Source: an uncultured Bacilli bacterium (GTDB lineage Bacteria; Bacillota_I; Bacilli_A; RF39; UBA660). Taken from it: a DNA stretch of 64,000 nt. Location: the NCBI GenBank assembly GCA_910578855.1, contig CAJTRV010000001.1, forward strand, positions 1,430 to 65,429, read 5' to 3'. Positions 7,867-58,790 of the stretch are shown here, piece after piece (the stretch's first letter is position 1; the number at the start of each line of letters is the position of its first letter). The notes beneath the pieces are model-generated. The model saw nothing but the letters and a program-made list of their open reading frames with translations. It had not been told where the DNA came from and ran no database searches. Position numbers and translations under genes: made by a program.

Positions 7867-8763
7867 ATGAAGGGGGTTGATAAAATGACAAATGAAATTA
7901 TAAAAGTAGGAACTTTTTTTAGTGGAATAGGATCACCAGAAAAAGCTTTAGAAAGATTAAAAAACGAAGGACATATAAAAGATTATAAAGTAGAATTTTT
8001 TTCAGAAATAGATAAAAATGCAATTAAAAGTTATTGTGCGATTCATAATGTAGATGAAAGTTTAAATCTTGGTAGTATAACTGATATTAAAGGTAAAAAT
8101 TTACCATACTGTGATTTATGGATTGGCGGCTTTCCATGTCAAGATATATCTTGTGCTGGTAAAATGAGAGGATTTGATTTTACAAGTTCTACAAGATCAT
8201 CACTTGGTTGGGAAATGATTAGATTACTTAAAGAAGTAAAGATAAAACCTAAATATGTTATATTTGAAAACGTAGCTATGATAACAAGCAAGAAATTTAA
8301 GGAAACATTAAACTTATTTAAAGAAGATTTAGTAAGTTTAGGATATACATTATATGACCAATTATTAAGTGCTACTGATTATGGAATACCTCAAACTAGA
8401 GCGAGGTATTTTTTAGTTGCAATACTAGATAATCAAAAACAATTTAAATTTCCAGACAAAATGGAAAGTGATGTTATATTAAAGAATTTTCTTGAAGAAT
8501 TTGTTGATGAAAAATATTATTTAACAAATTCTAATTATATAGAAAAGGGCAATAAAAGGATATTTAAACATAAAAATAGAAATGATATAGAGTATGAGAT
8601 TGATATGGATAAATATTTAATTGGTGGTGTATGTGGAATAGATAAACATACTAAATTTGCAATCTCATCAAGGTTATTTTCTATTTATGGGAATTCGCCA
8701 ACTTTAACAGCAAGTAATACATCTGATAATAGCAAAATTGTTGTAGAAAGTGAGGTAGAATAA
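7867..8763 (+). CDS. DNA (cytosine-5)-methyltransferase, N-terminal/large part (motifs I-VIII + start of TRD)
   Basis: FSGIGS (motif I), EIDKNAIKSY (II), GGFPCQDIS (IV), ENV (VI), QTRARYF (VIII). Confidence 0.8.
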   Translation: MKGVDKMTNEIIKVGTFFSGIGSPEKALERLKNEGHIKDYKVEFFSEIDKNAIKSYCAIHNVDESLNLGSITDIKGKNLPYCDLWIGGFPCQDISCAGKMRGFDFTSSTRSSLGWEMIRLLKEVKIKPKYVIFENVAMITSKKFKETLNLFKEDLVSLGYTLYDQLLSATDYGIPQTRARYFLVAILDNQKQFKFPDKMESDVILKNFLEEFVDEKYYLTNSNYIEKGNKRIFKHKNRNDIEYEIDMDKYLIGGVCGIDKHTKFAISSRLFSIYGNSPTLTASNTSDNSKIVVESEVE

Positions 8764-8933
8764 TGAGAATAAGAAAACTTACTCCAAGAGAAACTTGGAG
8801 ATTAATGGGATTTAGCGATATAGACTTTGATAGAGCAAGTAAAGTATGTACTGAAACGAATTTATATCATCAGGCTGGAAATTCTATTGTAGTTAATGTA
8901 ATGTATTCGATTTTAAAAGAATTATTAAAATAA
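8763..8933 (+). CDS. DNA (cytosine-5)-methyltransferase, C-terminal small part (motifs IX-X). Separate frame, overlaps the upstream stop as TAATGA.
   Basis: MRIRKLTPRETWRLMGFSDIDFD (motif IX) and GNSIVVNV (motif X). SD-like gaggtag 7 nt upstream of the ATG. Too short for the ORF track (57 codons). Confidence 0.7.
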   Translation: MRIRKLTPRETWRLMGFSDIDFDRASKVCTETNLYHQAGNSIVVNVMYSILKELLK

Positions 8934-9204: not shown

Positions 9205-9346
9205 AAAAATCCCTCCTATATATAATTTTATAGGAAATATTGATTTTATACTGCTCTCTTATAAGGAGCAATTTTATTGCTCGGTATTAACAGTTTTGTG
9301 TTATAATTAAGTTGGCACGAAAAAAGAATACTTTAAATTGTATTCT

Positions 9347-9771: not shown

Positions 9772-10260
9772 ATGAACAAAGAAAATTTAAATAGATATGT
9801 TAAAGAAATATCTGATGTTTTAGACGACAAAATTAAAATTATTACTTCAATTGAATATTACTATGATTTAGAAAAACTAGCATCTTCACTAAAAGATTTA
9901 TCTGATACCGAAGCTGAAAATGTTTTAGAACAATTAATCAATGAAAAACTAGAACAAATTAAGACAAGTGGTAAAGCAGATAAATTTAGAGAAAATAATA
10001 GACTTGTGGATGATGTAACTGAATTCTTCTATGAAAATAAGGAAGAAGATGTTGCCATTGTTGAAGAGGGAAGTTGCGTAGCAACAGATTTAATTTTAAA
10101 AACAATAGGTATAAATGGTAGAAAAATTGAATTACCAGTAAAGATTTCATATATAAAGGAATATTGTATAAGTAATATCATTGAGGAAAAAGATATAAGG
10201 AAAACGTTGTTGTGGATAGTTTTAGAACTATCAGTTGTAAGTTATTTTTTAAATAATTAA
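9772..10260 (+). CDS. Hypothetical protein
   Basis: ORF with RBS aaaggagc. No recognisable motif. Confidence 0.35.
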   Translation: MNKENLNRYVKEISDVLDDKIKIITSIEYYYDLEKLASSLKDLSDTEAENVLEQLINEKLEQIKTSGKADKFRENNRLVDDVTEFFYENKEEDVAIVEEGSCVATDLILKTIGINGRKIELPVKISYIKEYCISNIIEEKDIRKTLLWIVLELSVVSYFLNN

Positions 10261-10386: not shown

Positions 10387-10974
10387 ATGTTACAAGTTAG
10401 TAGAGCAAATAATCTTAAAATTCCAAAAACAATAGAAAATATTAGTGGAAATTTAAATAGTGTTGATGATAAGGTTGCAGTAAAACAAGCAATAGCTACA
10501 GCAAACAATCAAAAATTTGATAAGAAAAAAGTAAAAGAAAATGAAGAAAAGGATATGGAATTAGAAAGAATAGAAAAAATTCCATTTAATGCAAATGATT
10601 TAATGGTTATCACTGTTGTAAAAAAGCTAGGTGCTTATATAATTGCTGTTACTGAAAAATCTCCAGCTAAATATAGAGGTGTATTTGTTAATCGTATGCA
10701 AAATCTATCTTTAGAAATACTAGAATTACTTCTTCAAGCTAACTTTGTAAGAATTGATAGTTTAGATAATAAGAAAAAGAGAGAAGAATATCAAAAAGAT
10801 GCAATAATAAAATTAAAAATGTTAGGATATATAGCTATGGTGGCAGAAAATTCTAAATGTATATTATCTAAACAGTTTAAACAAATTTCGATTCAAATTG
10901 GTGAATCTATTAATTTAATAGCTGCTTGGAAAAAAAGCGACGATAATAGATGGAGTAGTCGTACAAATAATTAA
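10387..10974 (+). CDS. avd: Avd-like four-helix-bundle accessory protein of the DGR (possible true start at internal Met near 10555)
   Basis: C-terminal region KDAIIKLKMLGYIAMVAENSKCILSKQFKQISIQIGESINLIAAWKK resembles the Avd / 'S23 ribosomal-protein-like' four-helix-bundle family (LxxLGYI...EIGKML pattern). Basic. Located immediately upstream of TR-RT. Confidence 0.45.
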   Translation: MLQVSRANNLKIPKTIENISGNLNSVDDKVAVKQAIATANNQKFDKKKVKENEEKDMELERIEKIPFNANDLMVITVVKKLGAYIIAVTEKSPAKYRGVFVNRMQNLSLEILELLLQANFVRIDSLDNKKKREEYQKDAIIKLKMLGYIAMVAENSKCILSKQFKQISIQIGESINLIAAWKKSDDNRWSSRTNN

Positions 10975-11065
10975 AGGATTTTAAACCGAAAGGTTTTTAA
11001 TTAAGTAAATAATTTATTCTAGCGGCTTTACTTGTGTTGCGCCTTTGGCGCAGGGCTTTGTATTT

Positions 11066-11144
11066 GTCCGCGCGGTCAATAAGAATGGTAATAGGAACAA
11101 CAAATATAGGTATAAACGCAATGGTGCTGTTCGCCCAGATTTGC
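11066..11144 (+). repeat. DGR template repeat (TR)
   Basis: 79-bp near-identity to 12682..12760. Differs at 12 positions, all adenines in this copy (AAT/AAG/AAC/AAA codons). Confidence 0.85.
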
Positions 11145-11353
11145 TTTTGAAGAGATTTAATAATCTAAAAAACAGGTCAGAGAAATATATTTTAAGTAAA
11201 ATATATCAGAACTTTAAAGCAAAGGAATTATTTACTTTTCTAACCGCTATAATAGTGCGGTGGATAAATTTTTAACACCCACACAAGCAACGATAAAAAT
11301 ATCTTTGCAAGTTATAAGGGGTGTTTTTTTATTATTTATGGGGAGGATTTTTT

Positions 11354-12382
11354 ATGAAATTAGAAGAGATATTTACATTTGAAAATATATATAATGCCCA
11401 TAAAAAATGTAGAAGATCAAAACAACATAAAGGAGAAGTAATAAGATTTGAAGTAAATATTTCTGAAAATATTTGCAAATTACAAAAGGAAATAATATCA
11501 AAGAAATATAAAGTAGGAAAATATAAGGAATTTATAATATATGAACCAAAAGAAAGATTAATACAAGCTCTTCCATATAGAGATAGAATTGTATTAAGAT
11601 GTTTTTGCGATAATGTTTTAATTCCAAAGATTGAAAAAAAACTAATAAATGATAATGTTGCTTGTAGAAAAGGTAAAGGAACAAAATATGGAATGGATAG
11701 ATTGAAATATTTTTTACAAAAAGAATATTTTAAGAATAACGATAATAAAGTTTATTATTTGAAATGTGATATTCGTAAATATTTTCCTAGTATTAACCAC
11801 AATATTTTAATAAATAATCTAAAAAGGATTGGCTTTTCAGATGATGAATTTTGGTTTATAAACAAAATTATAAATGAACAACCTGATAATTTAGAAAAGG
11901 GTTTAGCATTAGGAAATCAATCAAGTCAATGGTTTGCTTTATATTATCTTGATAAAATTGATAGATTAATCAAAGAAAAACTTAAAGTTAAATGTTATGT
12001 TAGATATATGGATGATTTTATTTTAATTCATCGTGATAAAAAATATCTACAATATTGTTTGAAAATAATTAATAAAGTTTGTAATGAAGAATTAAATTTA
12101 GAACTTAATCAAAAAACTCAAATTGGTGTTGCCTATAATGGAATTGATTTTCTAGGATTTAATCATATTTTGACTGATAGTGGTAAAGTTATTAGAAAAC
12201 TTAGATTTTCATCTAAACAAAGAATGAGAAAACATATTAAAACTATAAAAAAACTTAAAGATAAATCTATAATTGATGAAGAATATGTTGGTATGAGAAT
12301 AAATGCTTTCAAAGCACATCTAAAATATTCTAATGAAAAAAGTATGGATAAATTATTATCAAATTTAGATAAAAACCTATAA
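11354..12382 (+). CDS. Diversity-generating retroelement reverse transcriptase
   Basis: RT motifs LKCDIRKYFPSINH (motif 3) and YVRYMDDFILI (YxDD). DGR-specific LGNQSSQ (I/LGxxxSQ in place of the group II intron QGxxxSP). About 340 aa. No maturase or endonuclease domains. RBS ggggagg precedes ATG 11354. Confidence 0.85.
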   Translation: MKLEEIFTFENIYNAHKKCRRSKQHKGEVIRFEVNISENICKLQKEIISKKYKVGKYKEFIIYEPKERLIQALPYRDRIVLRCFCDNVLIPKIEKKLINDNVACRKGKGTKYGMDRLKYFLQKEYFKNNDNKVYYLKCDIRKYFPSINHNILINNLKRIGFSDDEFWFINKIINEQPDNLEKGLALGNQSSQWFALYYLDKIDRLIKEKLKVKCYVRYMDDFILIHRDKKYLQYCLKIINKVCNEELNLELNQKTQIGVAYNGIDFLGFNHILTDSGKVIRKLRFSSKQRMRKHIKTIKKLKDKSIIDEEYVGMRINAFKAHLKYSNEKSMDKLLSNLDKNL

Positions 12383-12447
12383 AATTCAAAAAATAGTAAT
12401 AAAAAAATGAATTTATATGGTAAAATATAACTGTGGTGATGATTTAA

Positions 12448-14373
12448 ATGTATAATAATCAAGATTTAACTTTATTGTCGGAAGGACAAATTTGGGGGAA
12501 TGGTAATGAAGCCCAATTAGAAGTAATTAGAAAATATGGAACTAAGGCAGCAATTACAGATTTATGTGTTTTGACTGGTAGCTATTTATGTGAAGATACG
12601 GATTATAATATAGATGAAGATAGTTCATTAAAAGGTAGAACTAGTTGGTTTTGGACTAGATCTGATGATAATGACAATGATGTCCGCGCGGTCGATCGGG
12701 ATGGTACTAGGGACCACGAATGTAGGTATGAACGCATTGGTGCTGTTCGCCCAGCTTTGCAATCTTCTGTAATCTTTTCTCAAATCTCCCCGAACAGAGT
12801 GAGGGGATACAACGGAACTGAAGAAGTAGAATATGGTGAATATCCACAATATGCTGCTGATTCAAGAATGCAAAGTATATTAGAATCAGAATATAATAGG
12901 GGAATGAATAAAACAGGAAGAAGTTATACTTTTGATTCAGTAAAATATGACGATTATGATACTGGCTTTAAACCAGTGACTTATGAAGAATATGAATATC
13001 AAGGAAAAAAATATATTCGCATAAGGGCAAATTCTGATTTTGGTGGAAATAAATTTAAACTTTCAAATGGTATTGAATATAGAGATGGTGATTATGTTTG
13101 GGTAGAAGTATCACCTGTAAAATGGTTAATTGATGATAGAACAGGAATATTAATTTCAAAAAGAGGATTAGTTTCTGGAATAAGATTTCTTGATAAAAGA
13201 ACTAATTATAAAGGTGATTTTAGTAGAACAGAAATGAAGGAATATCTTGATAGATATATGATACGCGATTTAACTCAGACAGCAACATTTACTCGTGTTC
13301 AAGATATGACACCAGAAGAAAAAGCTCAATTTGAAGAAGAAAGAAAGCAAGCTGAAAAAAGAAGAAATCCTTATGGTTTAAAATTTGGACAAGTTAGTGA
13401 AGAAGAAATTATTAAAGGTGCAATAGAAAGTGGTGTTGCAGTATTCTTACATGGGCCTTCATCAGAAGGTAAATCTGCAAGAGTAAAGCAAATAGATCCT
13501 ACTTGTGAAATAATATATCTTCGTAATGCTACACCAGAAAGTTTAAATGGTAAAAGTGTATATAATCAATCAACAGGTGAGATGATGGATGTTCCACCAA
13601 CTTGGTTAAAGAAATTACAAGAAAAATGTGAAAAGGAACCTGATAGACTTCATGTAGTATTCTTTGATGAAATAACAAATGCACTACCTAGCATTCAAGG
13701 TATAGCATTTAATATAGTATTAGATAGAGAAGTTAATGGTATATGGAAATTGCCAGATAATGCTAGAATCGTTGCAGCAGGAAATGATATGAAAGATTCA
13801 TTAGCTGCAAATCAATTAGCAGAACCATTATTTAATAGATTTGCCCATGTTTATATTAAAACAACTACTGAGGGTTGGTTAAAATGGGCAAGTGAACATA
13901 ATATACATCCTGCTATTTACTCATATATTGCTTATAAAAAGGGCGAAACATTAAGAAGTAAATATGATGGTGAAAAACCTAACGCAGATCCAAGAAAATG
14001 GGAAATGGCTTCAAAAATGTTATATGCAACAGGAAGCCCTGAAATGTTAAGGGCGTTAGTTGGAGAGGATATTACAAGAGAATTTGTAGAATTCTGTAAT
14101 CAACAAGTTATAACATTAGATGATGTTATAAATGGAAATTATACCGATAGAGATATACAGGCATTAAATACTGCTGAAAGATATGCAACAACTATGGGAT
14201 TATCACAAGTTGATGATAATAACTTAGAAAAAGTAAGGGGTTTTGTTGCAGGTTTAGGAGCAGAGTTTGGAGCAATTTTTGATGCTTTATGGACACATGG
14301 CGATGAAAGTAAATTGGAAAGACTTGCAGAAGCAAAACTTGCTGAAATGCCAGGAGGAGGTATAAGAAGATAA
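12448..14373 (+). CDS. DGR target protein: N-terminal C-type-lectin-like variable domain fused to a MoxR/AAA_5-class AAA+ ATPase
   Basis: VR-encoded SWFWTRS...VRAVDRDGTRDHECRYERIGAVRPAL matches the DGR CLec consensus (WW.RS ... GVRP). The C-terminal half has Walker A LHGPSSEGKS, Walker B HVVFFDEITNA, sensor-1 RIVAAGN and PLFNRFAHVYI (the MoxR 'ALLDRF' motif). No signal peptide. Confidence 0.8.
   Translation: MYNNQDLTLLSEGQIWGNGNEAQLEVIRKYGTKAAITDLCVLTGSYLCEDTDYNIDEDSSLKGRTSWFWTRSDDNDNDVRAVDRDGTRDHECRYERIGAVRPALQSSVIFSQISPNRVRGYNGTEEVEYGEYPQYAADSRMQSILESEYNRGMNKTGRSYTFDSVKYDDYDTGFKPVTYEEYEYQGKKYIRIRANSDFGGNKFKLSNGIEYRDGDYVWVEVSPVKWLIDDRTGILISKRGLVSGIRFLDKRTNYKGDFSRTEMKEYLDRYMIRDLTQTATFTRVQDMTPEEKAQFEEERKQAEKRRNPYGLKFGQVSEEEIIKGAIESGVAVFLHGPSSEGKSARVKQIDPTCEIIYLRNATPESLNGKSVYNQSTGEMMDVPPTWLKKLQEKCEKEPDRLHVVFFDEITNALPSIQGIAFNIVLDREVNGIWKLPDNARIVAAGNDMKDSLAANQLAEPLFNRFAHVYIKTTTEGWLKWASEHNIHPAIYSYIAYKKGETLRSKYDGEKPNADPRKWEMASKMLYATGSPEMLRALVGEDITREFVEFCNQQVITLDDVINGNYTDRDIQALNTAERYATTMGLSQVDDNNLEKVRGFVAGLGAEFGAIFDALWTHGDESKLERLAEAKLAEMPGGGIRR
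12682..12760 (+). repeat. DGR variable repeat (VR) inside the target gene (codons about 79-104)
   Basis: Matches TR 11066..11144. Substitutions occur only where TR has A (a->g/c/t). Confidence 0.85.
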
Positions 14374-14765
14374 TGGAAAATAAAAAGGAAATATTATTGT
14401 CATATATAAGGACAAATGTTGCACCAATATTAGTTGATTTTATATCTGGTAAAGATTTGAATGGTGCAGTAGTATTGCCTGCTAATGTTGATGTTAAAGA
14501 ATTAAATGGTCATTATGATGGAGCAGATTTTATGCCACCAAAATGGCTTAATGAGATATTAAGTACAAATGCTAGTAAAATATTAGTAATAGATAAAATT
14601 GATACTATTTCAAAAGAAGAACAATTAAAATTTTGTGAATTATTAGAACATAGAAAAATATCTACATTTGAATTACCAAAAAGTTGTGTGATAATTGTAA
14701 CAGCAAACGAAATAAATAAAGATAAGATAAACGAAGAAATATTCTCATTAGTTGCACGAATTTGA
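14373..14765 (+). CDS. AAA-like domain fragment protein (Walker-B/sensor-1-like motifs, no Walker A). Translationally coupled to the DGR target.
   Basis: TAATG overlap at 14371-14375. KILVIDKID (hhhhD), CVIIVTAN (sensor-1-like). No GxxGxGKS. Confidence 0.4.
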   Translation: MENKKEILLSYIRTNVAPILVDFISGKDLNGAVVLPANVDVKELNGHYDGADFMPPKWLNEILSTNASKILVIDKIDTISKEEQLKFCELLEHRKISTFELPKSCVIIVTANEINKDKINEEIFSLVARI

Positions 14766-14775
14766 GGTATAAATT

Positions 14776-16386
14776 ATGAAATATGATATTGCAGCGTTAA
14801 AAAGAAAAATGCTTGTTAAATATCCCTTTTTTGGGAGTGTGGTAGCAAGTGTAGGTTATAAAGAAAACAAAGATATACCAACCGCAGGTACAGATGGAGA
14901 AACAATTTACTATAATCCTGAATATTTGGAAAGTTTAAGTGTTGAAGAACAGACTTTTATATTTGCTCATGAAGTATGTCATATTGCATTTAATCATATA
15001 TTAAGAAGTGAAGATAAAGATCCAGATTTATGGAATATTGCTACTGATGGTGTTATTAATCAATTTTTGAAACGAGATGGATTAAAAATGGCGCCGGGTG
15101 GAGTTGATATGGCAGAAGCTATTAATTACGATGCTGAACAGTTATATGAAAAACTATTACAAGAAAAACAGCAAAGACAACAGCAACAACAAACTGGACA
15201 AGGTAATAGTCAAAATCAACAAGGTAATCAGCAACAAAATCAACAACAAAGCGGTGGTAGTAGTCAAGGCGAAAATAACCAACAACAACCCCAATCACAA
15301 CAACAGAGTGGCGATTCACAAAATCAAGAACAAAATCAAGAAAATCAACAACAAAGTAGTGGTGGGGGGCAAAGTGGTGATGACCAACAGCAATCTCAAT
15401 CACAACAACAAGGTAGTTCAGGTGATGAAAGTTCACAAGAGCAAGATAAGCAATCACAAGAACAAAGCAGTGGTGGAACTGGGAAAGATTCACAAGAGGA
15501 AGATAAATCAAAACAAGATGTTGGACATGATACTCACAGCATGTGGGAACAAGCAGTTAAAAAGCATAAAGAGCAGCAAGAAAAATCTGATAAAAAAGAG
15601 AGTTTATTAGATAAGTTGTTAGGGAAAGATAAAGATAAAAAAGATAAAGAAAAAACTGAGCTTGAAAAGAAACAAGAAGAACTTGCAGAAATGGGAGAAA
15701 AAGATGCTTTTAAGAAAAATCTTGAAGATAAGAAAAAGCAACTTGAAGAATTAAAAGAAGCAATTTCTAAACAAGCATCACAAGCAGGAACTTCAACAAA
15801 TAGAGATGTTAGAACAGTTAATGATATTGGTACTGCAAAACCAATAGTTGATTGGCGATATATTTTAAGAGAAGCAATTAAATATGATGTAGATTGGTCA
15901 TATAAAAATGCTACATTAGAAGATGGTGTTGTTACTGCTAATTTAGAAGAACAACCAATGCCAGAAACTGAAATTGTTCTTGATACAAGTGGCTCAATAA
16001 ATGAAGTATTATTAAAGAACTTTTTAAGAGAATGTAAAAATATATTACAACATACTAAATTAAAAGTAGGATGTTTTGATACAGAATTTTATGGATTTCA
16101 AGAGATTAGAGCAGAAGAAGATATAGAAAATATGCGATTTGAAGGTGGTGGCGGTACTGACTTTGATGTCGCTGTAGGTGCTTTCTCAAGGCGAGTTGAA
16201 AATAAAATAATATTTACTGATGGAGAAGCTTCAATGCCGGATATGCCACTTGATGCAATATGGATAGTATTTGGTGGTGAAAGAATTAATCCTAAAGGTG
16301 GTAAAGTAATTCACATTACACCAGAACAATTGGATAGATTATATTCATACGAAATTGGGAGTGAAACCAGAGGAAGATCAAGATAA
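14776..16386 (+). CDS. Metallopeptidase-like (DUF2201-type HExxH) + von Willebrand factor A domain protein with central Q/S/N-rich disordered linker
   Basis: HEVCHIAFNH (HExxH), long polyQ/S segment, C-terminal VWA with MIDAS DTSGS...T...D. This is the family that pairs with MoxR AAA+ ATPases. Confidence 0.7.
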   Translation: MKYDIAALKRKMLVKYPFFGSVVASVGYKENKDIPTAGTDGETIYYNPEYLESLSVEEQTFIFAHEVCHIAFNHILRSEDKDPDLWNIATDGVINQFLKRDGLKMAPGGVDMAEAINYDAEQLYEKLLQEKQQRQQQQQTGQGNSQNQQGNQQQNQQQSGGSSQGENNQQQPQSQQQSGDSQNQEQNQENQQQSSGGGQSGDDQQQSQSQQQGSSGDESSQEQDKQSQEQSSGGTGKDSQEEDKSKQDVGHDTHSMWEQAVKKHKEQQEKSDKKESLLDKLLGKDKDKKDKEKTELEKKQEELAEMGEKDAFKKNLEDKKKQLEELKEAISKQASQAGTSTNRDVRTVNDIGTAKPIVDWRYILREAIKYDVDWSYKNATLEDGVVTANLEEQPMPETEIVLDTSGSINEVLLKNFLRECKNILQHTKLKVGCFDTEFYGFQEIRAEEDIENMRFEGGGGTDFDVAVGAFSRRVENKIIFTDGEASMPDMPLDAIWIVFGGERINPKGGKVIHITPEQLDRLYSYEIGSETRGRSR

Positions 16387-16518
16387 TTAAGGTTTGGGAC
16401 AAATAGTTCTAAATCTTTTTAATTTTGTAATTCACCTTTATATATAGGGAAAATTAATATTTTGTGTTATAATTAAATTGTACGATTAGGGCTTATTAAT
16501 TATAGGTATATTAAAGGA

Positions 16519-17979
16519 TTGAGTGATAGTATGAGAATAGGTTTAGATATAGATAATGTTGTAACCAATTTTGATAAAAAAATGTTAGAAGAATTTTATA
16601 AAGAAGATAAAAACAAAAGAAATAAGGGAATAGTTAATCCAGAAGGAAATTGGATTAAAAATATGTTTGATTGGTCAAATGATGAAATAGAGACCTTTTT
16701 TAATGACAATATGCAAGAATTTGCTAAAGAGTTAGAACCTAGAGAAGATGCTAAATATTATATGGATAAATTATTGGATGATGGGCATAGTTTATATTTA
16801 ATTTCACATAGAGCTTATCCACATTATACTGAACCATATAAAATTACTGAAAACTGGTTAAAAAAAAATAATATAAATTATACAAAATTAATACTTTCTA
16901 AAACTACAAATAAAAGTAAAGAATGTAAGGAAAATAACATTGATGTAATGTTTGATGATGTTAGAACTAATTGTCATCAATTGCAAGAAAGTGGTATTAA
17001 ATGTTATTTAATGGGAACAAACTATAATCAAAAAAAATTAGATGGATTAAAAGTAGTGAAAAATTGGAAGGAACTATATGAGGTGGTTAATAAAATGGAA
17101 AAGAAAAAAGTAATATTAGATACAGATATGTATAATGAAATAGATGATCAATTTGCATTAACTTATTTAATTAAATCATTGAATATTTTTGATTTACAAG
17201 CAATCACAATAGCTCCATTTTCAAAAAGTGGTTATGCTAATACTATGACTATTGAAGATGGAACAGAAAAAAGTTATGAGACAACTTTAAAAATATTAGA
17301 TATGTTGGATAAATCTGAATATAAAGATTTAGTATATAAGGGTGCAATAAAATATATGAAAGATAGTGAAGAAGATAATGATGCTGTAAATAAAATAATT
17401 GAAATATCAAATAAAAATGAAAAAACAACTATTTTAGCTATTGGAGCAATAACAAATGTTGCATTAGCTATTAAGAAAGCACCTGAAATTATTAGCAAAA
17501 TAAATGTAGTATGGTTAGGTGGTAATACTTTCTTAACTAAAGATAATAGTGAATTTAATTTTAGACAAGATATAAAAGCAGTACAAACAGTATTTAATTC
17601 AGGCGTTGAATTAGTTGTTATTCCATGTAGAAATGTTGCTTCTAATTTATCAACTACAATTTATGAATTACAACATTATTTAAGTGAGAATACAGAATTA
17701 AATAAATATTTAATTGATATTTTTATTAAGTGCAAAAAATCATTTATGAAAGAACCTAAAGATGAAATAGGTTCTAGTAAAACATTATGGGATCTAAGTG
17801 CAATAGCTTATGAGATAAATGCAGATTGGTTTAAATCTGAAATGATAAGTTGTCCTAATGTTCTTGATAATGGTTTATATGAACAAACAGAAAACAGACA
17901 TAATGTAATATTTGTGAATGATTTATATCGCAATAAAATATATCAAGATTTCTTTATTAAAATGGGATATAAAATTTAG
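16519..17979 (+). CDS. Fusion protein: HAD-type 5'(3')-deoxyribonucleotidase-like domain + inosine-uridine-preferring nucleoside hydrolase domain
   Basis: N-terminal GLDIDNVV (DxDxV HAD motif I). C-terminal LDTDMYNEIDDQFAL matches the nucleoside hydrolase DxDxxxDD signature. Confidence 0.6.
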   Translation: MSDSMRIGLDIDNVVTNFDKKMLEEFYKEDKNKRNKGIVNPEGNWIKNMFDWSNDEIETFFNDNMQEFAKELEPREDAKYYMDKLLDDGHSLYLISHRAYPHYTEPYKITENWLKKNNINYTKLILSKTTNKSKECKENNIDVMFDDVRTNCHQLQESGIKCYLMGTNYNQKKLDGLKVVKNWKELYEVVNKMEKKKVILDTDMYNEIDDQFALTYLIKSLNIFDLQAITIAPFSKSGYANTMTIEDGTEKSYETTLKILDMLDKSEYKDLVYKGAIKYMKDSEEDNDAVNKIIEISNKNEKTTILAIGAITNVALAIKKAPEIISKINVVWLGGNTFLTKDNSEFNFRQDIKAVQTVFNSGVELVVIPCRNVASNLSTTIYELQHYLSENTELNKYLIDIFIKCKKSFMKEPKDEIGSSKTLWDLSAIAYEINADWFKSEMISCPNVLDNGLYEQTENRHNVIFVNDLYRNKIYQDFFIKMGYKI

Positions 17980-18016
17980 AATAACTAGATACTAATATTG
18001 TGTAGAGGGTGATTAG

Positions 18017-18541
18017 ATGAAAGTATATATAGTAAGACATGGTCAAGTTTCACATAATGCTTTGAATCAATATAATACGAGTGATGAAGATTTAACAGAT
18101 TTAGGAATAAAGCAAGCAGAAGAATTAAGAAGCAAAATTCAAAATATACATTTTGATATTGTTATATCATCGCCATTATTAAGAGCTACTCATACAGAAT
18201 ACATACTTACAAATTATGATAATAGTATAATTACTGATGAAAGGTTAAGAGAAAGAAGCTGTGGTACTTTAAGTGGACAACCACTTGAAGTTACGAATAG
18301 AGAAGAATATTGGAATTATTATAGTGATGTTCAATATGGTATAAATGAAAATATACAAGATTTCTTTAAAAGAGTTTATAATTTTTTAGATGATCTTAAA
18401 ACAAAAGATTATAAAAGTGTTTTAATAGTTGCTCATAGTGGAGTTTCAAAAGCTTTTAGTGGTTATTTTGAAGGGATAAAGGATGGCAAATTTTTAAACA
18501 GAGGATTAAAAAATTGTGAAATTAAGGAGTATGAATTATGA
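18017..18541 (+). CDS. Histidine phosphatase superfamily (phosphoglycerate mutase-like) protein
   Basis: VRHGQ (RHG catalytic motif) at the N-terminus. About 175 aa. Confidence 0.65.
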   Translation: MKVYIVRHGQVSHNALNQYNTSDEDLTDLGIKQAEELRSKIQNIHFDIVISSPLLRATHTEYILTNYDNSIITDERLRERSCGTLSGQPLEVTNREEYWNYYSDVQYGINENIQDFFKRVYNFLDDLKTKDYKSVLIVAHSGVSKAFSGYFEGIKDGKFLNRGLKNCEIKEYEL

Positions 18542-19158
18542 AATTAACCAGTAAAGAAGCAAGAGAATTTTTAGAAAATGAAAGAGCCAATTTTGAAAAT
18601 CAAAGATGGATAAATCATAGTGTTTGTGTAGGAGATACTGCTGGTAAAATTGCTGAAGCTTTGTATAAAAAAGATATTAATGTAGATATTGATAAAACAA
18701 TTGCATTAGGGTATATTCATGATATTGGCAAAAAATTTAATGAACATGGAGGAGTATTTCCACATGCAATAAATGGGTATAACTATATTAAAGAATTAGG
18801 ATATGATGAAGAATATGCAAGTATTTGTATTAAACATTCATTTCTAAACAATGATATAGATTGTATATCAAACGATAGAGATGAAACTGATAAATCTAAT
18901 CCTAATTATAATTTTGTAAAAGAATATATAAGCAAAGAATATAGTATTGAGGAAAAAATAATTAATTTATGTGATTTAATGTGTATAACTAAAACATTAA
19001 CTGTAGAAAAAAGAATGATAGATTTATTACTAAGGCATGGAGTATTTAAAAAGACACATTATCATATAGAAGAAACTATGAAATTAAAAGAATATTTTGA
19101 TGATTTATTAGGATATAATTTATATGATTTATTTCCAGAAATTAAAGATAATCTATAG
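18538..19158 (+). CDS. HD-domain phosphohydrolase
   Basis: H...YIHDIGK (HD motif). ATGA overlap with the upstream gene. Confidence 0.55.
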   Translation: MKLTSKEAREFLENERANFENQRWINHSVCVGDTAGKIAEALYKKDINVDIDKTIALGYIHDIGKKFNEHGGVFPHAINGYNYIKELGYDEEYASICIKHSFLNNDIDCISNDRDETDKSNPNYNFVKEYISKEYSIEEKIINLCDLMCITKTLTVEKRMIDLLLRHGVFKKTHYHIEETMKLKEYFDDLLGYNLYDLFPEIKDNL

Positions 19159-19169
19159 TTGGTGGTATT

Positions 19170-19772
19170 ATGACTATAAAAGATATGAAACAAGCTGTTA
19201 AGCTTTTAGAAAATGAATGGGATTTGGGAGAAAAGGAATCGGGAGCATCAAGGCATCTATGTGCATGGATTTACTTGATGGAAATATTAGAAGAAACCGA
19301 ACAATTTGTGTATTATAGAGAGAATGGTAATCTTTTAGGATTTGCTGGATATTCTAATGATAAATCAAAAAAGCATCTATTAAAAAAGAAATTTTATTCA
19401 TTTATAAAAAAACAATTGTATAAAAGCAAAGAAATAAAAGATATAAAAGCATTACATGAGTATGAAGATAATTACTACTATGTACCAGATGAATTGAAAA
19501 ATTACTTTGATGGAGAAGTATCTATGCTAATAATTGATGAAAAAATAAGAGGCAAAGGAATTGGAAAAAAATTACTTTTAGAAGTATTCGCTCTAGCTAA
19601 AAAAGATAATATGAAAAATCTTCAAATACTAACTGATGATTCTTGCAATTATTATATATATGAGTCATTAGGATGTAAGAAAGTATATGAAACAGTAATA
19701 GAAAATAAAGAATATGGTAAATTAGGTAATATTACAAAGGAAACTGCTTATATTTATGAAAAAGTATTATAA
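19170..19772 (+). CDS. GNAT-family N-acetyltransferase
   Basis: IRGKGIGKKLL (acetyl-CoA binding motif A). Confidence 0.55.
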   Translation: MTIKDMKQAVKLLENEWDLGEKESGASRHLCAWIYLMEILEETEQFVYYRENGNLLGFAGYSNDKSKKHLLKKKFYSFIKKQLYKSKEIKDIKALHEYEDNYYYVPDELKNYFDGEVSMLIIDEKIRGKGIGKKLLLEVFALAKKDNMKNLQILTDDSCNYYIYESLGCKKVYETVIENKEYGKLGNITKETAYIYEKVL

Positions 19773-19889
19773 ATTAGTGAAATAATATTCCCTATGAAAA
19801 AGGATATAGTAAAAAATTAGAAAATAATTAGTTCTATTGACTAATTTATACTAAACTATTATAATAATCTACCGAAATGAGGCGATTTT

Positions 19890-20531
19890 ATGTCAAGAGA
19901 ACAAAATGTAATAAATTATTATGTTATATGTAATAGATTAAAAAATGTTATCAGAACTGGTTGGAAAAATTGGAATGTGCAAAGAGAAAGAATTGAAAGT
20001 GTTGCGGAGCATATATTTGGTGTTCAAATGCTTGCAATTGCAATGAAGTCAGAGTATCAATATGATGTTGATATAATGAAAGTTATATTTATGCTAGCGA
20101 TACATGAACTTGGTGAAACAGTTATAGGCGACTTAACTCAATTTGAAATATCCAAAGAGGAAAAGGAAAAATTAGAGCATGAAGCAGTGCATAGAATATT
20201 AGGCGGTTTATTAGATGGTAACCAAATTGAAGCATTATTTTTAGAATTTGATTCCCATAGTACAAAAGAATCTATGTTTGCATATCAATGTGATAAGTTG
20301 GAATGTGATTTACAAAGTAAATTATATGATGAAGAAGGTTGTGTTGATTTAGATAAACAGGATGGTAATGAAACAATGAAAAATTCAAGAGTTCAAGAAT
20401 TGTTAAAAACAGGTGCTTCATGGTCAACTATGTGGCTTCAATTTGGACAACAAGTTTATCCATACGATGATAATTTTAGAGCAGTTTCTAATTATGCTAT
20501 AAATAATGAAATAGGTCCAAAAAGGAAATAA
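19890..20531 (+). CDS. HD-domain 5'-deoxynucleotidase (YfbR-like)
   Basis: SVAEHIF...AIHELGETVIGDLT: the H..HE/D..D metal-binding pattern of YfbR-type HD hydrolases. Confidence 0.6.
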   Translation: MSREQNVINYYVICNRLKNVIRTGWKNWNVQRERIESVAEHIFGVQMLAIAMKSEYQYDVDIMKVIFMLAIHELGETVIGDLTQFEISKEEKEKLEHEAVHRILGGLLDGNQIEALFLEFDSHSTKESMFAYQCDKLECDLQSKLYDEEGCVDLDKQDGNETMKNSRVQELLKTGASWSTMWLQFGQQVYPYDDNFRAVSNYAINNEIGPKRK

Positions 20532-20550
20532 AAAGTATTAAGTTTAAAAA

Positions 20551-20591
20551 TGCAAACTTGCACAAAAACCAAAAAAATATGCAAAATTGCA
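20551..20591. promoter_or_regulatory. Two copies of inverted-repeat operator TGCAA-N2-TTGCA (tgcaaacttgca, tgcaaaattgca) overlapping a TTGACA -35-like element
   Basis: Seen directly. Same motif recurs at 21576..21587 and 24500..24531. Confidence 0.5.
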
Positions 20592-20657
20592 TTTTTTATA
20601 TTGACAAAAAACTTAAATTGTTATAGTATATAAAACAATTCAAAAGGGGGAGATTCT

Positions 20658-21521
20658 ATGTTAAATACTCAATCTATGAATCTTGATTTAATTAGAACCT
20701 TTGTAATTGTTGGTCAATCTAGGGATTATAATGACGCTGCTTCAAAGTTAAATATGGATAGATCTAATGTATCAAGACATATTAAAACTCTTGAAGAATT
20801 AATGGGAACTAAATTAATAAATAAAAATGCTAAAAACTATATTGAATTAACAGAAGATGGTAAGGTGTTATTTGATGGATATGAAAAAGCATACAATTTA
20901 TTATTTATTACTGAAAAGACATATTTACAAAATAAAGACTTAAATAGTGGTAAAATATCAATTGGTATTTCTAGTGATATAGAATCTAAAATTTTAATTG
21001 ATAAAATAGTAGATTTTAAAAAGAAATATGCTGATACAGCATTTAAAACAATAAATTTACCTTCAAAAAGTTTAGTAGAAAAGTTATCACATTATACACT
21101 TGACTTTGTTATAGATGAAAAATCAGATAGTTATAAGAAAAGTAGTGGTGTTAAATCTATAGATTTATTTGATGAAGAATACTGTCTAGTATATTCAAAA
21201 AATAATTTTGCTATTTCAGATATTTCAGATTTAAAAGATCTTTCATTTATATTACCTGTTAGTACAAAACAAGAAAGAAAATTATTTGAAGAATATTTAA
21301 GTGATAATCAAATAACAAGAAGATTATCTATAGAAACATCTAATTATTTTTCTTCAATCGAATATGCTAAGAATGGATTAGGAGTAGCTTTAGTTCCTAA
21401 AAGTATGATAGTTGATGAATTAGAAGTTTTTGATATTGATTTAAAAAAGACTATCACATTAAGTTATGTTGAGAATAATTTATCACCATCATCAAAAGAG
21501 TTTTTGAAAGAATTTAAATAA
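20658..21521 (+). CDS. LysR-family transcriptional regulator
   Basis: N-terminal HTH (LIRTFVIVGQSRDYNDAASKLNMDRSNVSRHIKTLEE) plus substrate-binding-domain-sized C-terminus. Confidence 0.7.
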   Translation: MLNTQSMNLDLIRTFVIVGQSRDYNDAASKLNMDRSNVSRHIKTLEELMGTKLINKNAKNYIELTEDGKVLFDGYEKAYNLLFITEKTYLQNKDLNSGKISIGISSDIESKILIDKIVDFKKKYADTAFKTINLPSKSLVEKLSHYTLDFVIDEKSDSYKKSSGVKSIDLFDEEYCLVYSKNNFAISDISDLKDLSFILPVSTKQERKLFEEYLSDNQITRRLSIETSNYFSSIEYAKNGLGVALVPKSMIVDELEVFDIDLKKTITLSYVENNLSPSSKEFLKEFK

Positions 21522-21575
21522 TATACTAAAAATATTTATAATCTAATTTCAATTTTGAAGTTAGATTTTTTTTAA

Positions 21576-21587
21576 TGCAATTTTGCA
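21576..21587. promoter_or_regulatory. Operator copy TGCAA-TT-TTGCA upstream of the radical SAM gene
   Basis: tgcaattttgca, followed by a ttgact/-10-like region. Confidence 0.45.
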
Positions 21588-21666
21588 TATACAATTGTAA
21601 AATTGACTGGATATATTTGGCAATAAAGATGTTAGAATAATCACTAATTAAAAAAGAGGTGATTTT

Positions 21667-58589: not shown

Positions 58590-58790
58590 TATATTTGATG
58601 GAGAAAAATATAAAGTAATAGGATTATTGGTAATTAGAAAGTTAACGGTTGCTGAAAGTTAGCCTAAATAATCGTATGAATTACATATTTGGAGTCAAAC
58701 CGTGGATTCGCGTTAAGAATGAAGCTGCATAAGTATTTATGAAATAAGGTGGTACCGCGGGGAAGCTCGTCCTTATAACATAAGTACTTT
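58590..58790 (+). ncRNA. Candidate T-box leader upstream of deoC-tyrS
   Basis: aataaggtggtaccgcgg (58743..58760) closely matches the T-box consensus AAUUAGGGUGGUACCGCG. A U-run follows. A UAC (Tyr) triplet lies in the upstream leader (gaattacat). tyrS lies downstream. Secondary structure not verified. Confidence 0.4.

Follow-up and report, generated by a model that had tools for sequence, protein, structure and literature searches.

An uncultured gut Bacilli (RF39-like) bacterium carries a chromosomal diversity-generating retroelement (DGR) cassette, and the locus is very probably a complete and currently active avd-TR-RT system. Here, the DGR diversifies a small binding domain at the front of a cytoplasmic ATPase, whereas the usual substrate is a surface or phage-tail protein, altered at its tail end. 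The cassette lies within a 64,000-nt stretch of DNA, which was analysed as a whole and is called the window, and is ordered avd, template repeat (TR), structured spacer RNA, reverse transcriptase (RT) and target gene (Table 1). The avd-like, RT and downstream target ORFs are all present and intact in the window, as are the TR and the variable repeat (VR) in the target, and the complete DGR proposed by a first-pass annotation of this DNA is confirmed.

Table 1. Features of the DGR locus, in window coordinates
Feature	Coordinates	Strand	Basis or content
avd (accessory variability determinant), 195 aa	10387..10974	+	Avd profile matches
Template repeat (TR)	11065..11144	+	non-coding, 26 adenines; read in target frame = VRAVNKNGNRNNKYRYKRNGAVRPDL
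IMH*-like TR 3' end	11123..11144	+	GGTGCTGTTCGCCCAG-A-TTTGC; A11139 is the fixed donor-specific base
Structured spacer RNA, TR to RT	11135..11330	+	conservation and covariation
DGR reverse transcriptase (RT), 342 aa	11354..12382	+	LGNQSSQ, YMDD; profile and structure matches
Target gene, 641 aa, cytoplasmic	12448..14373	+	phrog_1297, tblastn, motifs, AF2 model
Divergent C-type-lectin-like (CLec-like) domain, aa 1-118	12448..12801	+	target N-terminus
Variable repeat (VR)	12681..12760	+	encodes target aa 79-104
IMH-like VR 3' end	12739..12760	+	GGTGCTGTTCGCCCAG-C-TTTGC; encodes G-A-V-R-P-A-L
Weak inverted repeat, putative homing element	12787..12807	+	tcccc-11 nt-gggga, inside coding sequence
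Small co-operonic protein, 130 aa	14373..14765	+	phrog_1297 E 6e-4; sub-threshold AAA, AAA_5
Partner protein	14776..16386	+	PF13203 DUF2201_N E 3.7e-39; PF09967 DUF2201 E 1.6e-13; phrog_1314 E 5e-67

Results

TR and VR differ only at adenines. Pairwise alignment of positions 11066-11144 with 12682-12760 was free of gaps, and 12/12 mismatches fell on an A in the TR, as the annotation had claimed (hypergeometric P = 1.9e-7, with 26 A among 79 TR bases). Homology without gaps covers 80 nt at an offset of 1616 (11065-11144 and 12681-12760), and every mismatch lies at codon position 1 or 2 of the ORF 12448-14373, between aa 83 and 103. When the 64-kb window was searched with a pattern in which the TR adenines were masked, TR and VR were the sole copies, with 0 expected. 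The adenine-only pattern recurs in at least 15 independent loci, whose TR sequences differ, and, between lineages, non-A differences in the TR recur in each lineage's own VR, a sign of concerted TR/VR evolution. With 25 mutable adenines, the TR could specify up to ~1e13 protein variants. A spurious 76-aa ORF (11045-11275) overlaps the TR.

The annotation attributed all 12 mismatches to mutagenic homing, which holds for 11 of them. The twelfth, A11139 in the TR and C12755 in the VR (Asp versus Ala), is A versus C in 15/15 RT-intact related loci as well as in the window, and residue 103 of the target is Ala in 117 and Val in 3 of 120 close homologues, the TR-encoded Asp occurring in 0. Because it is fixed in all RT-intact related loci, we conclude that A11139/C12755 is not a product of mutagenesis and instead marks IMH*/IMH, and thus the pair has 11 mutagenic differences and one fixed IMH*/IMH difference. 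As the VR is not C-terminal, the IMH and whatever lies 3' of it have to double as protein-coding sequence, and the IMH-like VR 3' end is a cis element within an ORF. The hairpin noted at 12787-12807 is present and, as noted, weak (dG -3.5 kcal/mol, z ~0 versus shuffled sequence). Over 31 loci, 86.5% of cells were paired and 6 cells were compensatory, versus 2.0 in shuffles, and slid controls were similar.

The VR varies in nature while its surroundings stay constant. Contigs that match the window exactly over 3.8-6.5 kb differ from it inside the 79-nt VR only, and four different VRs occur on contigs otherwise identical to it over 3.8-9.9 kb. One contig (L080) equals the window over 6498 bp except at 16 VR sites, another (L082) over 3787 bp except at 17, and a third (L078) has a TR identical to that of the window and a different VR. 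A comparison of related strains had been suggested as a check, and among these near-isogenic contigs 21/23 variable VR sites were TR adenines, with identical flanks. At the protein level, 9-10 TR-A codons and 0-1 other residues of 641 separate P0002-P0004 from the window protein, and 120 target proteins with 92-100% identity included 60 VR alleles. Hypervariability falls on residues 83, 84, 85, 87, 89, 90, 91, 92, 95 and 97, and mean entropy was 1.76 bits at TR-A codons, 0.20 at VR non-A codons and 0.13 elsewhere.

Diversification of the VR ceases where the RT is deleted, and the VR allele there is frozen. A single allele, NKHGDRDDLFRYLRY, is common to 50 proteins with 50 different backbones, and the sole place of this allele that was examined (L083, which carries P0018) has an RT with an internal deletion of ~240 nt. 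Moreover, non-A TR/VR mismatches numbered 0-1 in RT-intact metagenome loci and 1-5 in RT-truncated ones, versus 0 in the window.

The protein components of the cassette resemble those of known DGRs. The Avd-like ORF of the annotation was borne out by a match to phrog_3206 "Avd protein of DGR" (E 2.8e-14), and matches to PF22296 bAvd (E 1.4e-5) and NF033474 DivGenRetAVD (E 1.1e-5) were both below curated cut-offs. A helical Avd-like region (aa 67-188) follows an N-terminal extension of ~65 aa, and in every related locus with a DGR, avd immediately precedes the TR and is conserved at 69-91% identity. Both reported motifs were found in the RT ORF, and the HMM search proposed for it returned phrog_1423 (E 1.4e-105) and RVT_1 (E 1.1e-16). 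The best solved relative of the RT was PDB 8ub7_A (E 3e-36; next match 1e-9), labelled only "Reverse transcriptase" in the database, which we take to be the BPP-1 bRT-Avd-RNA complex. The nearest phage RTs are gut-phage DGR RTs, 35-42% identical. The order avd-TR-RT-target-SM-vWA is identical in every related DGR-bearing locus.

The spacer between TR and RT is a structured RNA. Pairing joins the TR 3' end (11135-11136 and 11140-11147) to 11216-11225, three hairpins form at 11153-11166, 11185-11206 and 11239-11264, and a long-range helix (11273-11280/11319-11326) is followed by a T run. Across lineages, the stretch is better conserved than the TR. RNAalifold of 11 spacer sequences gave 45 pairs, of which 15 showed compensatory double changes, and 7 sequences gave 14 compensatory pairs, versus 4.8 +/- 1.7 in shuffles and at most 6 with slid partners. 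No Rfam family matched the spacer RNA. That the TR lies within a conserved, covarying RNA agrees with its earlier description as a non-coding template rather than a duplicated coding segment.

The target has an unusual architecture, that of a cytoplasmic MoxR-like AAA+ ATPase with the variable domain as its N-terminus. The CLec-like domain (aa 1-118) is followed by a beta-rich region (aa ~120-260), a helical linker and the ATPase (aa 320-641). The target had no Pfam match at threshold; aa 320-608 matched the phrog_1297 ATPase (E 1e-46), tblastn matches were annotated as MoxR-like or MoxR family ATPase, and Walker A (GPSSEGKS) and Walker B (VVFFDE) motifs occur at aa 336 and 403. An AF2 model of aa 1-315 had pLDDT 93.5. 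The VR, from which the annotation read a C-type-lectin-like segment, forms the last three strands of the divergent CLec-like domain. No signal peptide and no hydrophobic or membrane segment was found in the target sequence. The N-terminal variable region was covered by 0 of the matching 692 phage and 97 plasmid records, and the combination of DGR and CLec-like fusion is specific to this gut Bacillota family. The partner protein combines an HExxH metallopeptidase-like domain (HEVCH at aa 65), a Q/S-rich linker and a vWA domain with an intact MIDAS (DTSGS at aa 403), and is co-operonic with the ATPase; it is conserved after the target in nearly all related loci with contigs that reach far enough.

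Discussion

How the cassette might operate can be proposed from the DGR mechanism established in Bordetella phage BPP-1, as summarised in PMC5758913. By that precedent, an RT-Avd complex would bind the TR-spacer RNA, cDNA synthesis from this RNA would copy adenines unfaithfully, and the adenine-mutagenised cDNA would replace the VR. The GC-rich GGTGCTGTTCGCCCAG and the fixed A(TR)/C(VR) may serve as IMH*/IMH, defining the 3' boundary and making transfer run from donor to recipient. Like the prototype (mtd-avd-TR-brt), the window has Avd and an RT with I/LGxxxSQ and YMDD, a non-coding TR that is separated from the RT by a structured spacer RNA, TR-to-VR changes specific to adenines at positions 1/2 of AAY-rich codons, a GC-rich element that ends both repeats with a donor/recipient-specific difference, and a VR at the end of a C-type-lectin-type fold. 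Unlike BPP-1, which is phage-borne, with a tail-fibre target upstream of avd and a C-terminal VR, the window DGR is chromosomal, with a cytoplasmic ATPase fusion downstream of the RT and a VR at aa 79-104 of 641. Moreover, the IMH/IMH* difference here consists of one fixed base, beyond which homology continues for only 5-6 nt, and there is no convincing GC-rich cruciform.

What the variable domain does is a more tentative matter. As the most likely function, though one we hold with some doubt, it may be an intracellular ligand sensor that recruits a changing target to a MoxR-vWA-peptidase machine, and that target would most plausibly be a phage or mobile-element protein. We favor this reading because of the analogy with DGR-diversified MoxR/vWA conflict systems of cyanobacteria and purple sulfur bacteria. 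These "VMAP ternary" systems, from cyanobacteria and Thiohalocapsa (Kaur et al. 2020, PMC7159879; Dore et al. 2024, PMC10907252), are the source of the sensor interpretation, and likewise couple a DGR to a MoxR-type AAA+ ATPase and a vWA protein, with a predicted cytoplasmic CLec/FGS-type ligand-binding domain as the target. Their variable CLec domain, however, is C-terminal and on the vWA component or a separate protein, whereas that of the window is N-terminal and on the MoxR ATPase. Moreover, the vWA domain here is part of a DUF2201_N/DUF2201 metallopeptidase-vWA partner, the locus gave no match to a VMAP, TIR, trypsin or caspase-like component, and the host is a small-genome gut Bacilli lineage rather than a multicellular bacterium. 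AAA-type DGR targets (a 2017 study as cited in PMC10907252; Midasin/AAA UVR4, Wu et al. 2018, PMC5758913) also join a variable domain and an AAA-type ATPase on one polypeptide, but as described in those accounts the variable region lies in the C-terminal part, and hosts, RT clade and partner genes differ from those of the window. Treponema denticola TvpA and Legionella LdtA are CLec-fold variable proteins of cellular DGRs, but they are surface lipoproteins with C-terminal VRs, whereas the window target lacks an export signal and has its VR domain at the N-terminus.

Alternatively, the DGR is real and its target is not an immune sensor, the variable domain serving as an adaptable substrate adaptor of a MoxR-vWA chaperone/protease for the cell's own proteins or metabolites, in housekeeping or niche adaptation. 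The characterised MoxR-vWA pairs RavA-ViaA, CbbQ-CbbO and NorQ-NorD are chaperones or metal-insertion machines, and these, like the phage phrog_1297/phrog_1314 pair and the window, set a MoxR/AAA_5 Walker A/B AAA+ module beside a MIDAS vWA protein; relative to the phage MoxR-like ATPase/DUF2201 pair, the CLec-like fusion and DGR occur only in the gut Bacillota family of the window. Moreover, the neighbourhoods are housekeeping, no PADLOC model matched the locus, and most species keep the operon without any DGR. We nonetheless consider an adaptor rather unlikely. A 1e13-variant binding site is hard to square with a fixed endogenous substrate, and the N-terminal domain is far more divergent between species than the ATPase (31-96% versus 67-98% identity) and in some genomes is expanded into paralogue arrays (as in L026), both typical of arms-race proteins. 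DGR-MoxR/vWA links elsewhere, moreover, are read as conflict systems (PMC7159879, PMC10907252), as in the sensor reading that we prefer.

It is very unlikely that the DGR is borne by a phage or conjugative element and diversifies that element's receptor-binding or host-range protein, in the manner of BPP-1 tropism switching. Phage families phrog_1297 and phrog_1314 do match the ATPase and vWA genes, the nearest annotated RT relatives are the gut-phage enzymes, the window contains an integrative conjugative element at ~27-57 kb, and XRE regulators and a Dcm methylase lie just upstream. The immediate neighbours of the cassette, however, are NusA, IF-2, RbfA and an ABC transporter to one side and genes of nucleotide metabolism to the other, with no phage structural genes nearby, and relatives of the cassette occupy many chromosomal sites beside housekeeping genes. 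Moreover, IMG/VR scans gave no match, and the target is fused to an ATPase and lacks a signal peptide or membrane segment.

That the cassette is a relic, its TR/VR pattern left by past mutagenic homing that no longer works in this genome, is likewise very unlikely. In many related loci the cassette has indeed decayed, the RT being reduced to fragments or internally deleted, and the VR is frameshifted in L023 and has a stop codon in L049. The window, however, has intact copies of avd, the RT (with both YMDD and LGNQSSQ), the TR and the target, its non-A mismatches are 0 rather than the 1-5 of RT-truncated loci, and otherwise identical contigs bear four different VRs. Finally, a duplicated coding segment homogenised by recombination or gene conversion beside a coincidental RT, to which the translatability of the TR in the VR frame and the ORF overlapping it might point, is refuted by adenine-only differences that gene conversion does not give, their recurrence in the independent loci, the covarying RNA around the TR and the tracking of RT integrity by VR variation.

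The small 130-aa protein adjoins the target in nearly all related loci. Its sequence resembles an AAA-like fragment that has Walker-B and sensor-1-like segments and lacks a P-loop.

RESULTS

The template repeat (TR) and the variable repeat (VR) align without gaps over 80 nt at an offset of 1616, and homology ends abruptly on both sides (see the table below). Pairwise alignment upheld the adenine-only pattern reported in the first-pass annotation: the repeats differ at 12 positions, the TR base is an adenine in 12/12, and P is 1.9e-7 for all 12 differences falling on A, given 26 A among 79 TR bases. The differences are confined to codon position 1 or 2 of the target gene and span residues 83 to 103. 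The pair was the top family in the repeat finder output for the window. Moreover, the TR pattern with its adenines masked, allowing up to 3 mismatches, matched the TR and the VR alone in the 64-kb window (0 expected), and thus there is one TR and one VR and no further target within it. The TR is intergenic, and the ORF that overlaps it is a by-product of the TR sharing the reading frame of the VR. Adenine-restricted differences also were found in 15 related loci with an intact reverse transcriptase (RT), each with 0 to 2 non-A mismatches. The GC-rich hairpin upstream of the TR is kept in the closest clade with a loop change of TTT to TTC and may be either the avd terminator or the 5' part of the retroelement RNA.

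One of the 12 differences sets itself apart. After the last variable codon, both repeats carry GGTGCTGTTCGCCCAG, followed by A in the TR or C in the VR and then by TTTGC, where homology ends. All 15 RT-intact related loci share the A/C difference with the window, divergent as their TRs are, and residue 103 was Ala in 117 and Val in 3 of 120 VRs but the TR-encoded Asp in none. Because of this fixation, and because Asp103 never occurs, we read the A/C difference as a marker that would tell donor from recipient where transfer ends on the 3' side. The absence of Asp could also stem in part from selection on the conserved RPAL motif. On the marker reading, the count of 12 stands for differences at TR adenines and falls to 11 for mutagenesis. 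The first-pass annotation saw no obvious distinct pair of 3'-end elements; GGTGCTGTTCGCCCAG with its A or C end probably functions as IMH* in the TR and IMH in the VR.

The GC hairpin that had been noted 3' of the VR is present and weak. It has a 5-bp stem, an 11-nt loop, and a dG of -3.5 kcal/mol, no better than that of shuffled sequence (z about 0). Compensatory changes in the stem occur in a few lineages (loci L037, L049, and L066), slid controls give similar counts, and some of the changes are nonsynonymous (Pro to Leu with Arg to Lys in L037). GC-rich inverted repeats were detected in 34% of diversity-generating retroelements (DGRs) (PMC5758913), and thus the absence of such a repeat is no argument against a DGR.

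Coordinates of features in the window
Feature	Positions (strand)	Description
C-5 cytosine methyltransferase	7867-8933	Split into 298-aa and 56-aa ORFs abutting at 8763; both match DNA_methylase
21-nt direct repeat	9294-9314 / 16460-16480	TTTTGTGTTATAATTAAGTTG / ...AAATTG, 1 mismatch; contains extended -10-like TGTGTTATAAT
Upstream ORF	9772-10260	162 aa, directly upstream of avd
avd	10387-10974 (+)	Avd-like protein
GC-rich hairpin	11037-11053	TTGCGCC-TTT-GGCGCAG, 7 bp, 12 nt upstream of TR
ORF overlapping TR	11045-11275	76 aa, TTG start
TR	11065-11144	Homologous to VR
IMH* (candidate)	11123-11144	3' end of TR
TR 3' end helix (RNAalifold)	11135-11136 + 11140-11147 with 11216-11225
Spacer hairpins	11153-11166, 11185-11206, 11239-11264
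Long-range helix	11273-11280 with 11319-11326	Followed by T run and RT ribosome-binding site
RT	11354-12382 (+)	342 aa; LGNQSSQ and YMDD present
Target	12448-14373 (+)	641 aa
VR	12681-12760	aa 79-104 of target
IMH (candidate)	12739-12760	3' end of VR
Inverted repeat 3' of VR	12787-12807	Weak hairpin
Small protein	14373-14765 (+)	130-aa AAA-like fragment without P-loop
Partner protein	14776-16386 (+)	DUF2201_N metallopeptidase-like domain (HEVCH), Q/S-rich linker, DUF2201 vWA domain with intact MIDAS (DTSGS, aa 403)
Linker in partner gene	15190-15520	Q/S/G-rich low complexity; degenerate repeats of ~105 nt (families D2-D4)
Nucleotide-catabolism-type genes	16519-24344	NT5C-nucleoside hydrolase fusion, histidine phosphatase, HD protein, GNAT, HD_3/YfbR-like 5'-deoxynucleotidase, LysR regulator, radical SAM protein, NUDIX protein
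Integrative conjugative element	27082-57113	SpaA/thioester-domain adhesin (27082), VirB4/TraG-like ATPase (33281), M23 peptidase (35758), type IV coupling protein (51897), large serine recombinase (55056)
T-box leader	58592-58777	RF00230, 93.2 bits; after conjugative element

The RT is of the DGR type, as its motifs had suggested. A profile search matched it to phrog_1423 at an E value of 1.4e-105 and to RVT_1 at 1e-16, and the best PDB match was 8ub7_A, a 328-aa reverse transcriptase (E 3e-36), with other RT classes at 1e-9 or weaker. The bRT-Avd-RNA complexes of Bordetella phage are entries 8ub7 to 8ube. NCBIfam models of group II intron, Drt3a, and retron enzymes matched only far below their cutoffs. 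The closest annotated phage RTs, at 34 to 42% identity, belong to DGR-bearing gut phages such as Faecalibacterium phages FP_Brigit and FP_Toutatis, and Bordetella phages also were among the phage matches. The assignment of an Avd-like ORF before the TR likewise proved sound: the product matched phrog_3206, "Avd protein of DGR" (E 2.8e-14), and both Pfam bAvd and NCBIfam DivGenRetAVD cover the same residues at E values of about 1e-5, below their curated cutoffs. The Avd protein carries an N-terminal extension of ~65 aa and has no PDB homolog by sequence. The gene order of avd, TR, RT, and target corresponds to Architecture B1 of Wu et al. (PMC5758913), with the target downstream.

The ORF directly upstream of avd has no family match and is kept at the same position with 81 to 93% identity in DGR-bearing loci of two clades (L004, L013, L021, L023, L024, L044, L086, L088, and L094); no copy was detected in loci without a DGR. 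The ORF may serve as an accessory gene or simply belong to the mobile unit. A 165-aa ORF upstream of the RT remnant in locus L083 was considered as a homolog of it and rejected, as that ORF is the Avd gene. In two of the loci, both metagenome contigs, avd, TR, and RT are intact, and downstream of the RT the target either is absent (L088) or is reduced to its first 29 codons (L094).

The RNA between the TR and the RT appears to be structured. Across divergent lineages, this stretch of 210 nt is better conserved than the TR is. For 11 non-identical sequences, RNAalifold predicted 45 pairs, 15 of them with compensatory double changes and almost none broken. The first seven sequences gave 14 double-change pairs, compared to 4.8 +/- 1.7 in column shuffles and no more than 6 with slid partners. 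TTTGC/GCAAA pairing is replaced by TTCAC/GTGAA in two lineages, and A11139 lies in an unpaired AGA bulge of the helix at the TR 3' end. No Rfam family matched the TR or the spacer in a gathering-threshold scan of the window, the sole match being the T-box leader. In BPP-1, the RT-Avd complex uses a TR-spacer scaffold, and the spacer RNA here is of the same kind; by that analogy, we infer that it plays the same scaffold role. The structure, with its covariation support, could serve as a family model.

Related sequences vary where the TR has adenines. More than 120 distinct homologs of the target were found at 92 to 100% identity, and column entropy peaks at residues 83, 84, 85, 87, 89, 90, 91, 92, 95, and 97, with 5 to 14 residue types each. 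Mean entropy was 1.76 bits for codons with a TR adenine at position 1 or 2, 0.20 for other VR codons, and 0.13 for the other 615 residues. Three homologs (P0002 to P0004) differ from the window protein at 9 or 10 hypervariable codons and at 0 or 1 other residues. Moreover, two contigs are identical to the window over 6498 bp (L080) and 3787 bp (L082) except for 16 and 17 positions, respectively, all in the VR, and a third (L078, 9926 bp) combines a different VR with an identical TR and 8 scattered differences. Comparison of four VRs gave 23 variable sites. Polymorphism exclusively at TR adenines, the pattern sought among related strains, holds at 21/23 of these and fails at two, a G-to-C and a C-to-G change. 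Low-level non-A changes have been reported for 23% of DGRs, and the two sites fit such changes.

Lineages that have lost the RT serve as natural controls. The commonest VR allele, NKHGDRDDLFRYLRY, is common to 50 proteins with 50 different backbones. One carrier, P0018, is found on 77 contigs and in 142 index blocks, and its locus keeps avd and the TR with an internal RT deletion of ~240 nt (window positions 11462-11705 absent). A scan of metagenome contigs with a TR-end/spacer motif returned 16 more loci, all of the same gene order, in which non-A TR/VR mismatches number 0 to 1 when the RT is intact versus 1 to 5 when it is truncated. Among 75 species-level genomes, ~11 have the full cassette and ~8 have RT fragments only, while the rest have the target operon alone. 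In lineages with different TRs, non-A differences in the TR are mirrored in their own VRs, which is concerted evolution of the sort predicted by continuing TR-to-VR transfer. We conclude from these comparisons that diversification appears to be ongoing and RT dependent and that the DGR behaves as active, because near-isogenic contigs differ in the VR and because the VR is frozen, with non-A drift, where the RT is deleted. Genomes that are identical over kilobases and differ just at the TR-adenine sites of a 79-nt VR, with RT-less sister lineages as controls, make an unusually clean natural demonstration of activity. Two DGR-bearing loci have a damaged target, one with an in-frame stop within the VR (L049, 6154-6336) and one with a 1-nt VR indel (L023, 6228-6308); either a deleterious homing event has been caught in passing or the consensus of the metagenome-assembled genome (MAG) is in error.

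The target protein had no Pfam or NCBIfam match at threshold and no PDB homolog by sequence. Residues 320 to 608, however, matched the phage ATPase family phrog_1297 (E 1e-46), tblastn against phages and plasmids returned matches annotated as MoxR-like or MoxR family ATPase at 25 to 31% identity, and both Walker motifs are intact (A, GPSSEGKS, aa 336; B, VVFFDE, aa 403). Pfam AAA_5 also matched, below its cutoff (E 0.0066). The N-terminal part was not covered by any of the 692 phage and 97 plasmid matching records. Residues 1 to about 290 are part of a large family, unnamed and comprising 1671 clusters at 50% identity, in which most members are stand-alone proteins of ~300 aa and only ~15 of the top 150 carry the ATPase; ten long representatives had no C-terminal partner Pfam domain. 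Between species, the ATPase half is 67 to 98% identical and the N-terminal half 31 to 96%.

AlphaFold2, given 122 diverse sequences, modeled the N-terminal part with a pLDDT of 93.5 as an alpha/beta domain (aa 1-118) followed by a beta-rich one. The final elements of the first domain are strands 79-82, 88-91, and 103-105, and these come from the VR; DUF6273 matched residues 50 to 104 below threshold. Thus, as predicted by the model, the VR closes the C-terminal end of a divergent C-type-lectin (CLec)-like ligand-binding domain, which is the canonical placement and agrees with the lectin-like segment first proposed. At the level of the whole protein, the VR is not C terminal; a C-terminal VR is typical of DGRs and not defining. 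C-terminal VRs are near universal, ascribed to a need for noncoding cis elements (Roux et al., PMC8144416), and N-terminal cases account for 3/372 DGRs (Wu et al., PMC5758913). The DGR in the window is an exception to the rule: its putative IMH is itself coding sequence for the conserved G-A-V-R-P-A-L, and donor and recipient would be told apart by a single fixed base. Arrays of the N-terminal domain occur elsewhere. Locus L026 has five paralogs (516, 4251, 6142, 9934, and 11837) that differ in their VR-like segments and have no RT nearby, and locus L032 has four copies (6157, 9793, 11760, and 13727) with an identical VR segment, either a true tandem duplication or an assembly artifact.

Two genes follow the target, and the three are kept together in almost every related locus with a long enough contig. 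The vWA-like domain of the partner protein matched PF09967 (DUF2201) at an E value of 1.6e-13, and no signal peptide or membrane segment was found in the target, the 130-aa protein, or the vWA protein. The linker of the partner protein varies in length between species. The window is chromosomal, with NusA, IF-2, RbfA, and an ABC transporter upstream, nucleotide-metabolism genes downstream, and an integrative conjugative element beyond. In other species, the operon lies among unrelated housekeeping genes, and of the 175 Pfam families in 128 flanking ORFs from about 50 species, none occurred in more than 3 members. The hosts belong to the uncultured gut Bacilli, with MAGs labeled Bacilli, "Tenericutes," CAG:417, CAG:605, and Candidatus Faecisoma and among them a complete 1.46-Mb chromosome; some Clostridia, e.g., Zhenpiania hominis, are hosts as well.

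DISCUSSION

The element shows every testable defining feature of a DGR. By the DGR paradigm, RT-Avd would bind the TR-spacer RNA and make adenine-mutagenized cDNA, which in turn would replace the VR as far as the IMH. With 25 adenines open to mutation, the computed diversity is at most 1e15 variants at the DNA level and about 8.5e12 at the protein level; mutation can turn three Lys codons into stops, and one relative has such a stop. Since DGRs are a familiar class of element and abound in the human gut, finding one is unsurprising, and here the mechanism is ordinary and the architecture instructive. What sets this one apart is a VR domain at the N terminus whose putative homing signals lie within coding sequence, a target fused directly to a MoxR ATPase, a partner of the DUF2201 type, and the lineage of its hosts. 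The association of DGRs with MoxR and vWA proteins, seen before in multicellular cyanobacteria and purple sulfur bacteria, thus also reaches reduced-genome gut Bacilli, where the domain architecture differs. A full-text search returned no paper combining DGR and RF39; the lineage may already figure in large DGR catalogs.

Why the target is diversified can be read in more than one way. Its likeliest role, in which our confidence falls somewhat short of even, is that of an intracellular reprogrammable ligand sensor carried on a MoxR hexamer and working with the vWA-metallopeptidase partner. The sensor role is favored indirectly by the cytoplasmic location, by sensor domains that evolve fast and are sometimes multicopy (five in L026), by the patchy distribution, and by analogy to DGR-linked MoxR/vWA conflict systems. 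A candidate effector is the HExxH domain that is fused to the vWA protein. A bolder and doubtful proposal is that of a module of anticipatory immunity in small-genome gut Bacilli, self-contained and able to move horizontally, in which the DGR-reprogrammed N-terminal lectin-like sensor on a MoxR motor would pass foreign (phage or plasmid) proteins to the vWA-tethered metallopeptidase. If so, this would be a system of cytoplasmic recognition, hypervariable at the protein level and separate from the VMAP ternary systems found in multicellular bacteria, and the coding-embedded homing signals would mean that the rule of a C-terminal VR is not mechanistic.

Alternatively, the target might be a housekeeping adaptor, which we consider rather improbable. 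What speaks against a sensor is the lack of a PADLOC match, a defense-island neighborhood, and a VMAP component. PADLOC-DB 2.0 had no match for the target, the small protein, the vWA protein, Avd, or the upstream ORF, and the RT matched generic RT/DRT models, as any RT would. Features of the VMAP ternary system (Kaur et al. 2020) are present in the MoxR-type AAA+ ATPase and the adjoining MIDAS vWA protein; the third gene here, however, encodes a 130-aa AAA-like fragment, and no VMAP component was found. The operon proteins matched only DUF2201_N, DUF2201, RVT_1, and bAvd in a copy of Pfam that may lack VMAP models.

A phage origin was rejected, as megablast against 50,697 phage records gave no cassette match and neither a protein scan nor a TR-end/spacer motif scan of IMG/VR gave any. 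We note that the two copies of the 21-nt direct repeat lie 7166 nt apart and enclose a block that begins with the XRE gene, takes in the DGR and the target, and ends with the vWA gene; the repeat may represent a promoter that was duplicated or the borders of a module that was inserted. The nucleotide-catabolism-type genes directly after the operon are not kept beside it in other species. Finally, the split of the C-5 cytosine methyltransferase gene is not an assembly error in the window, as the same split is found in the independent contigs L076 and L078.
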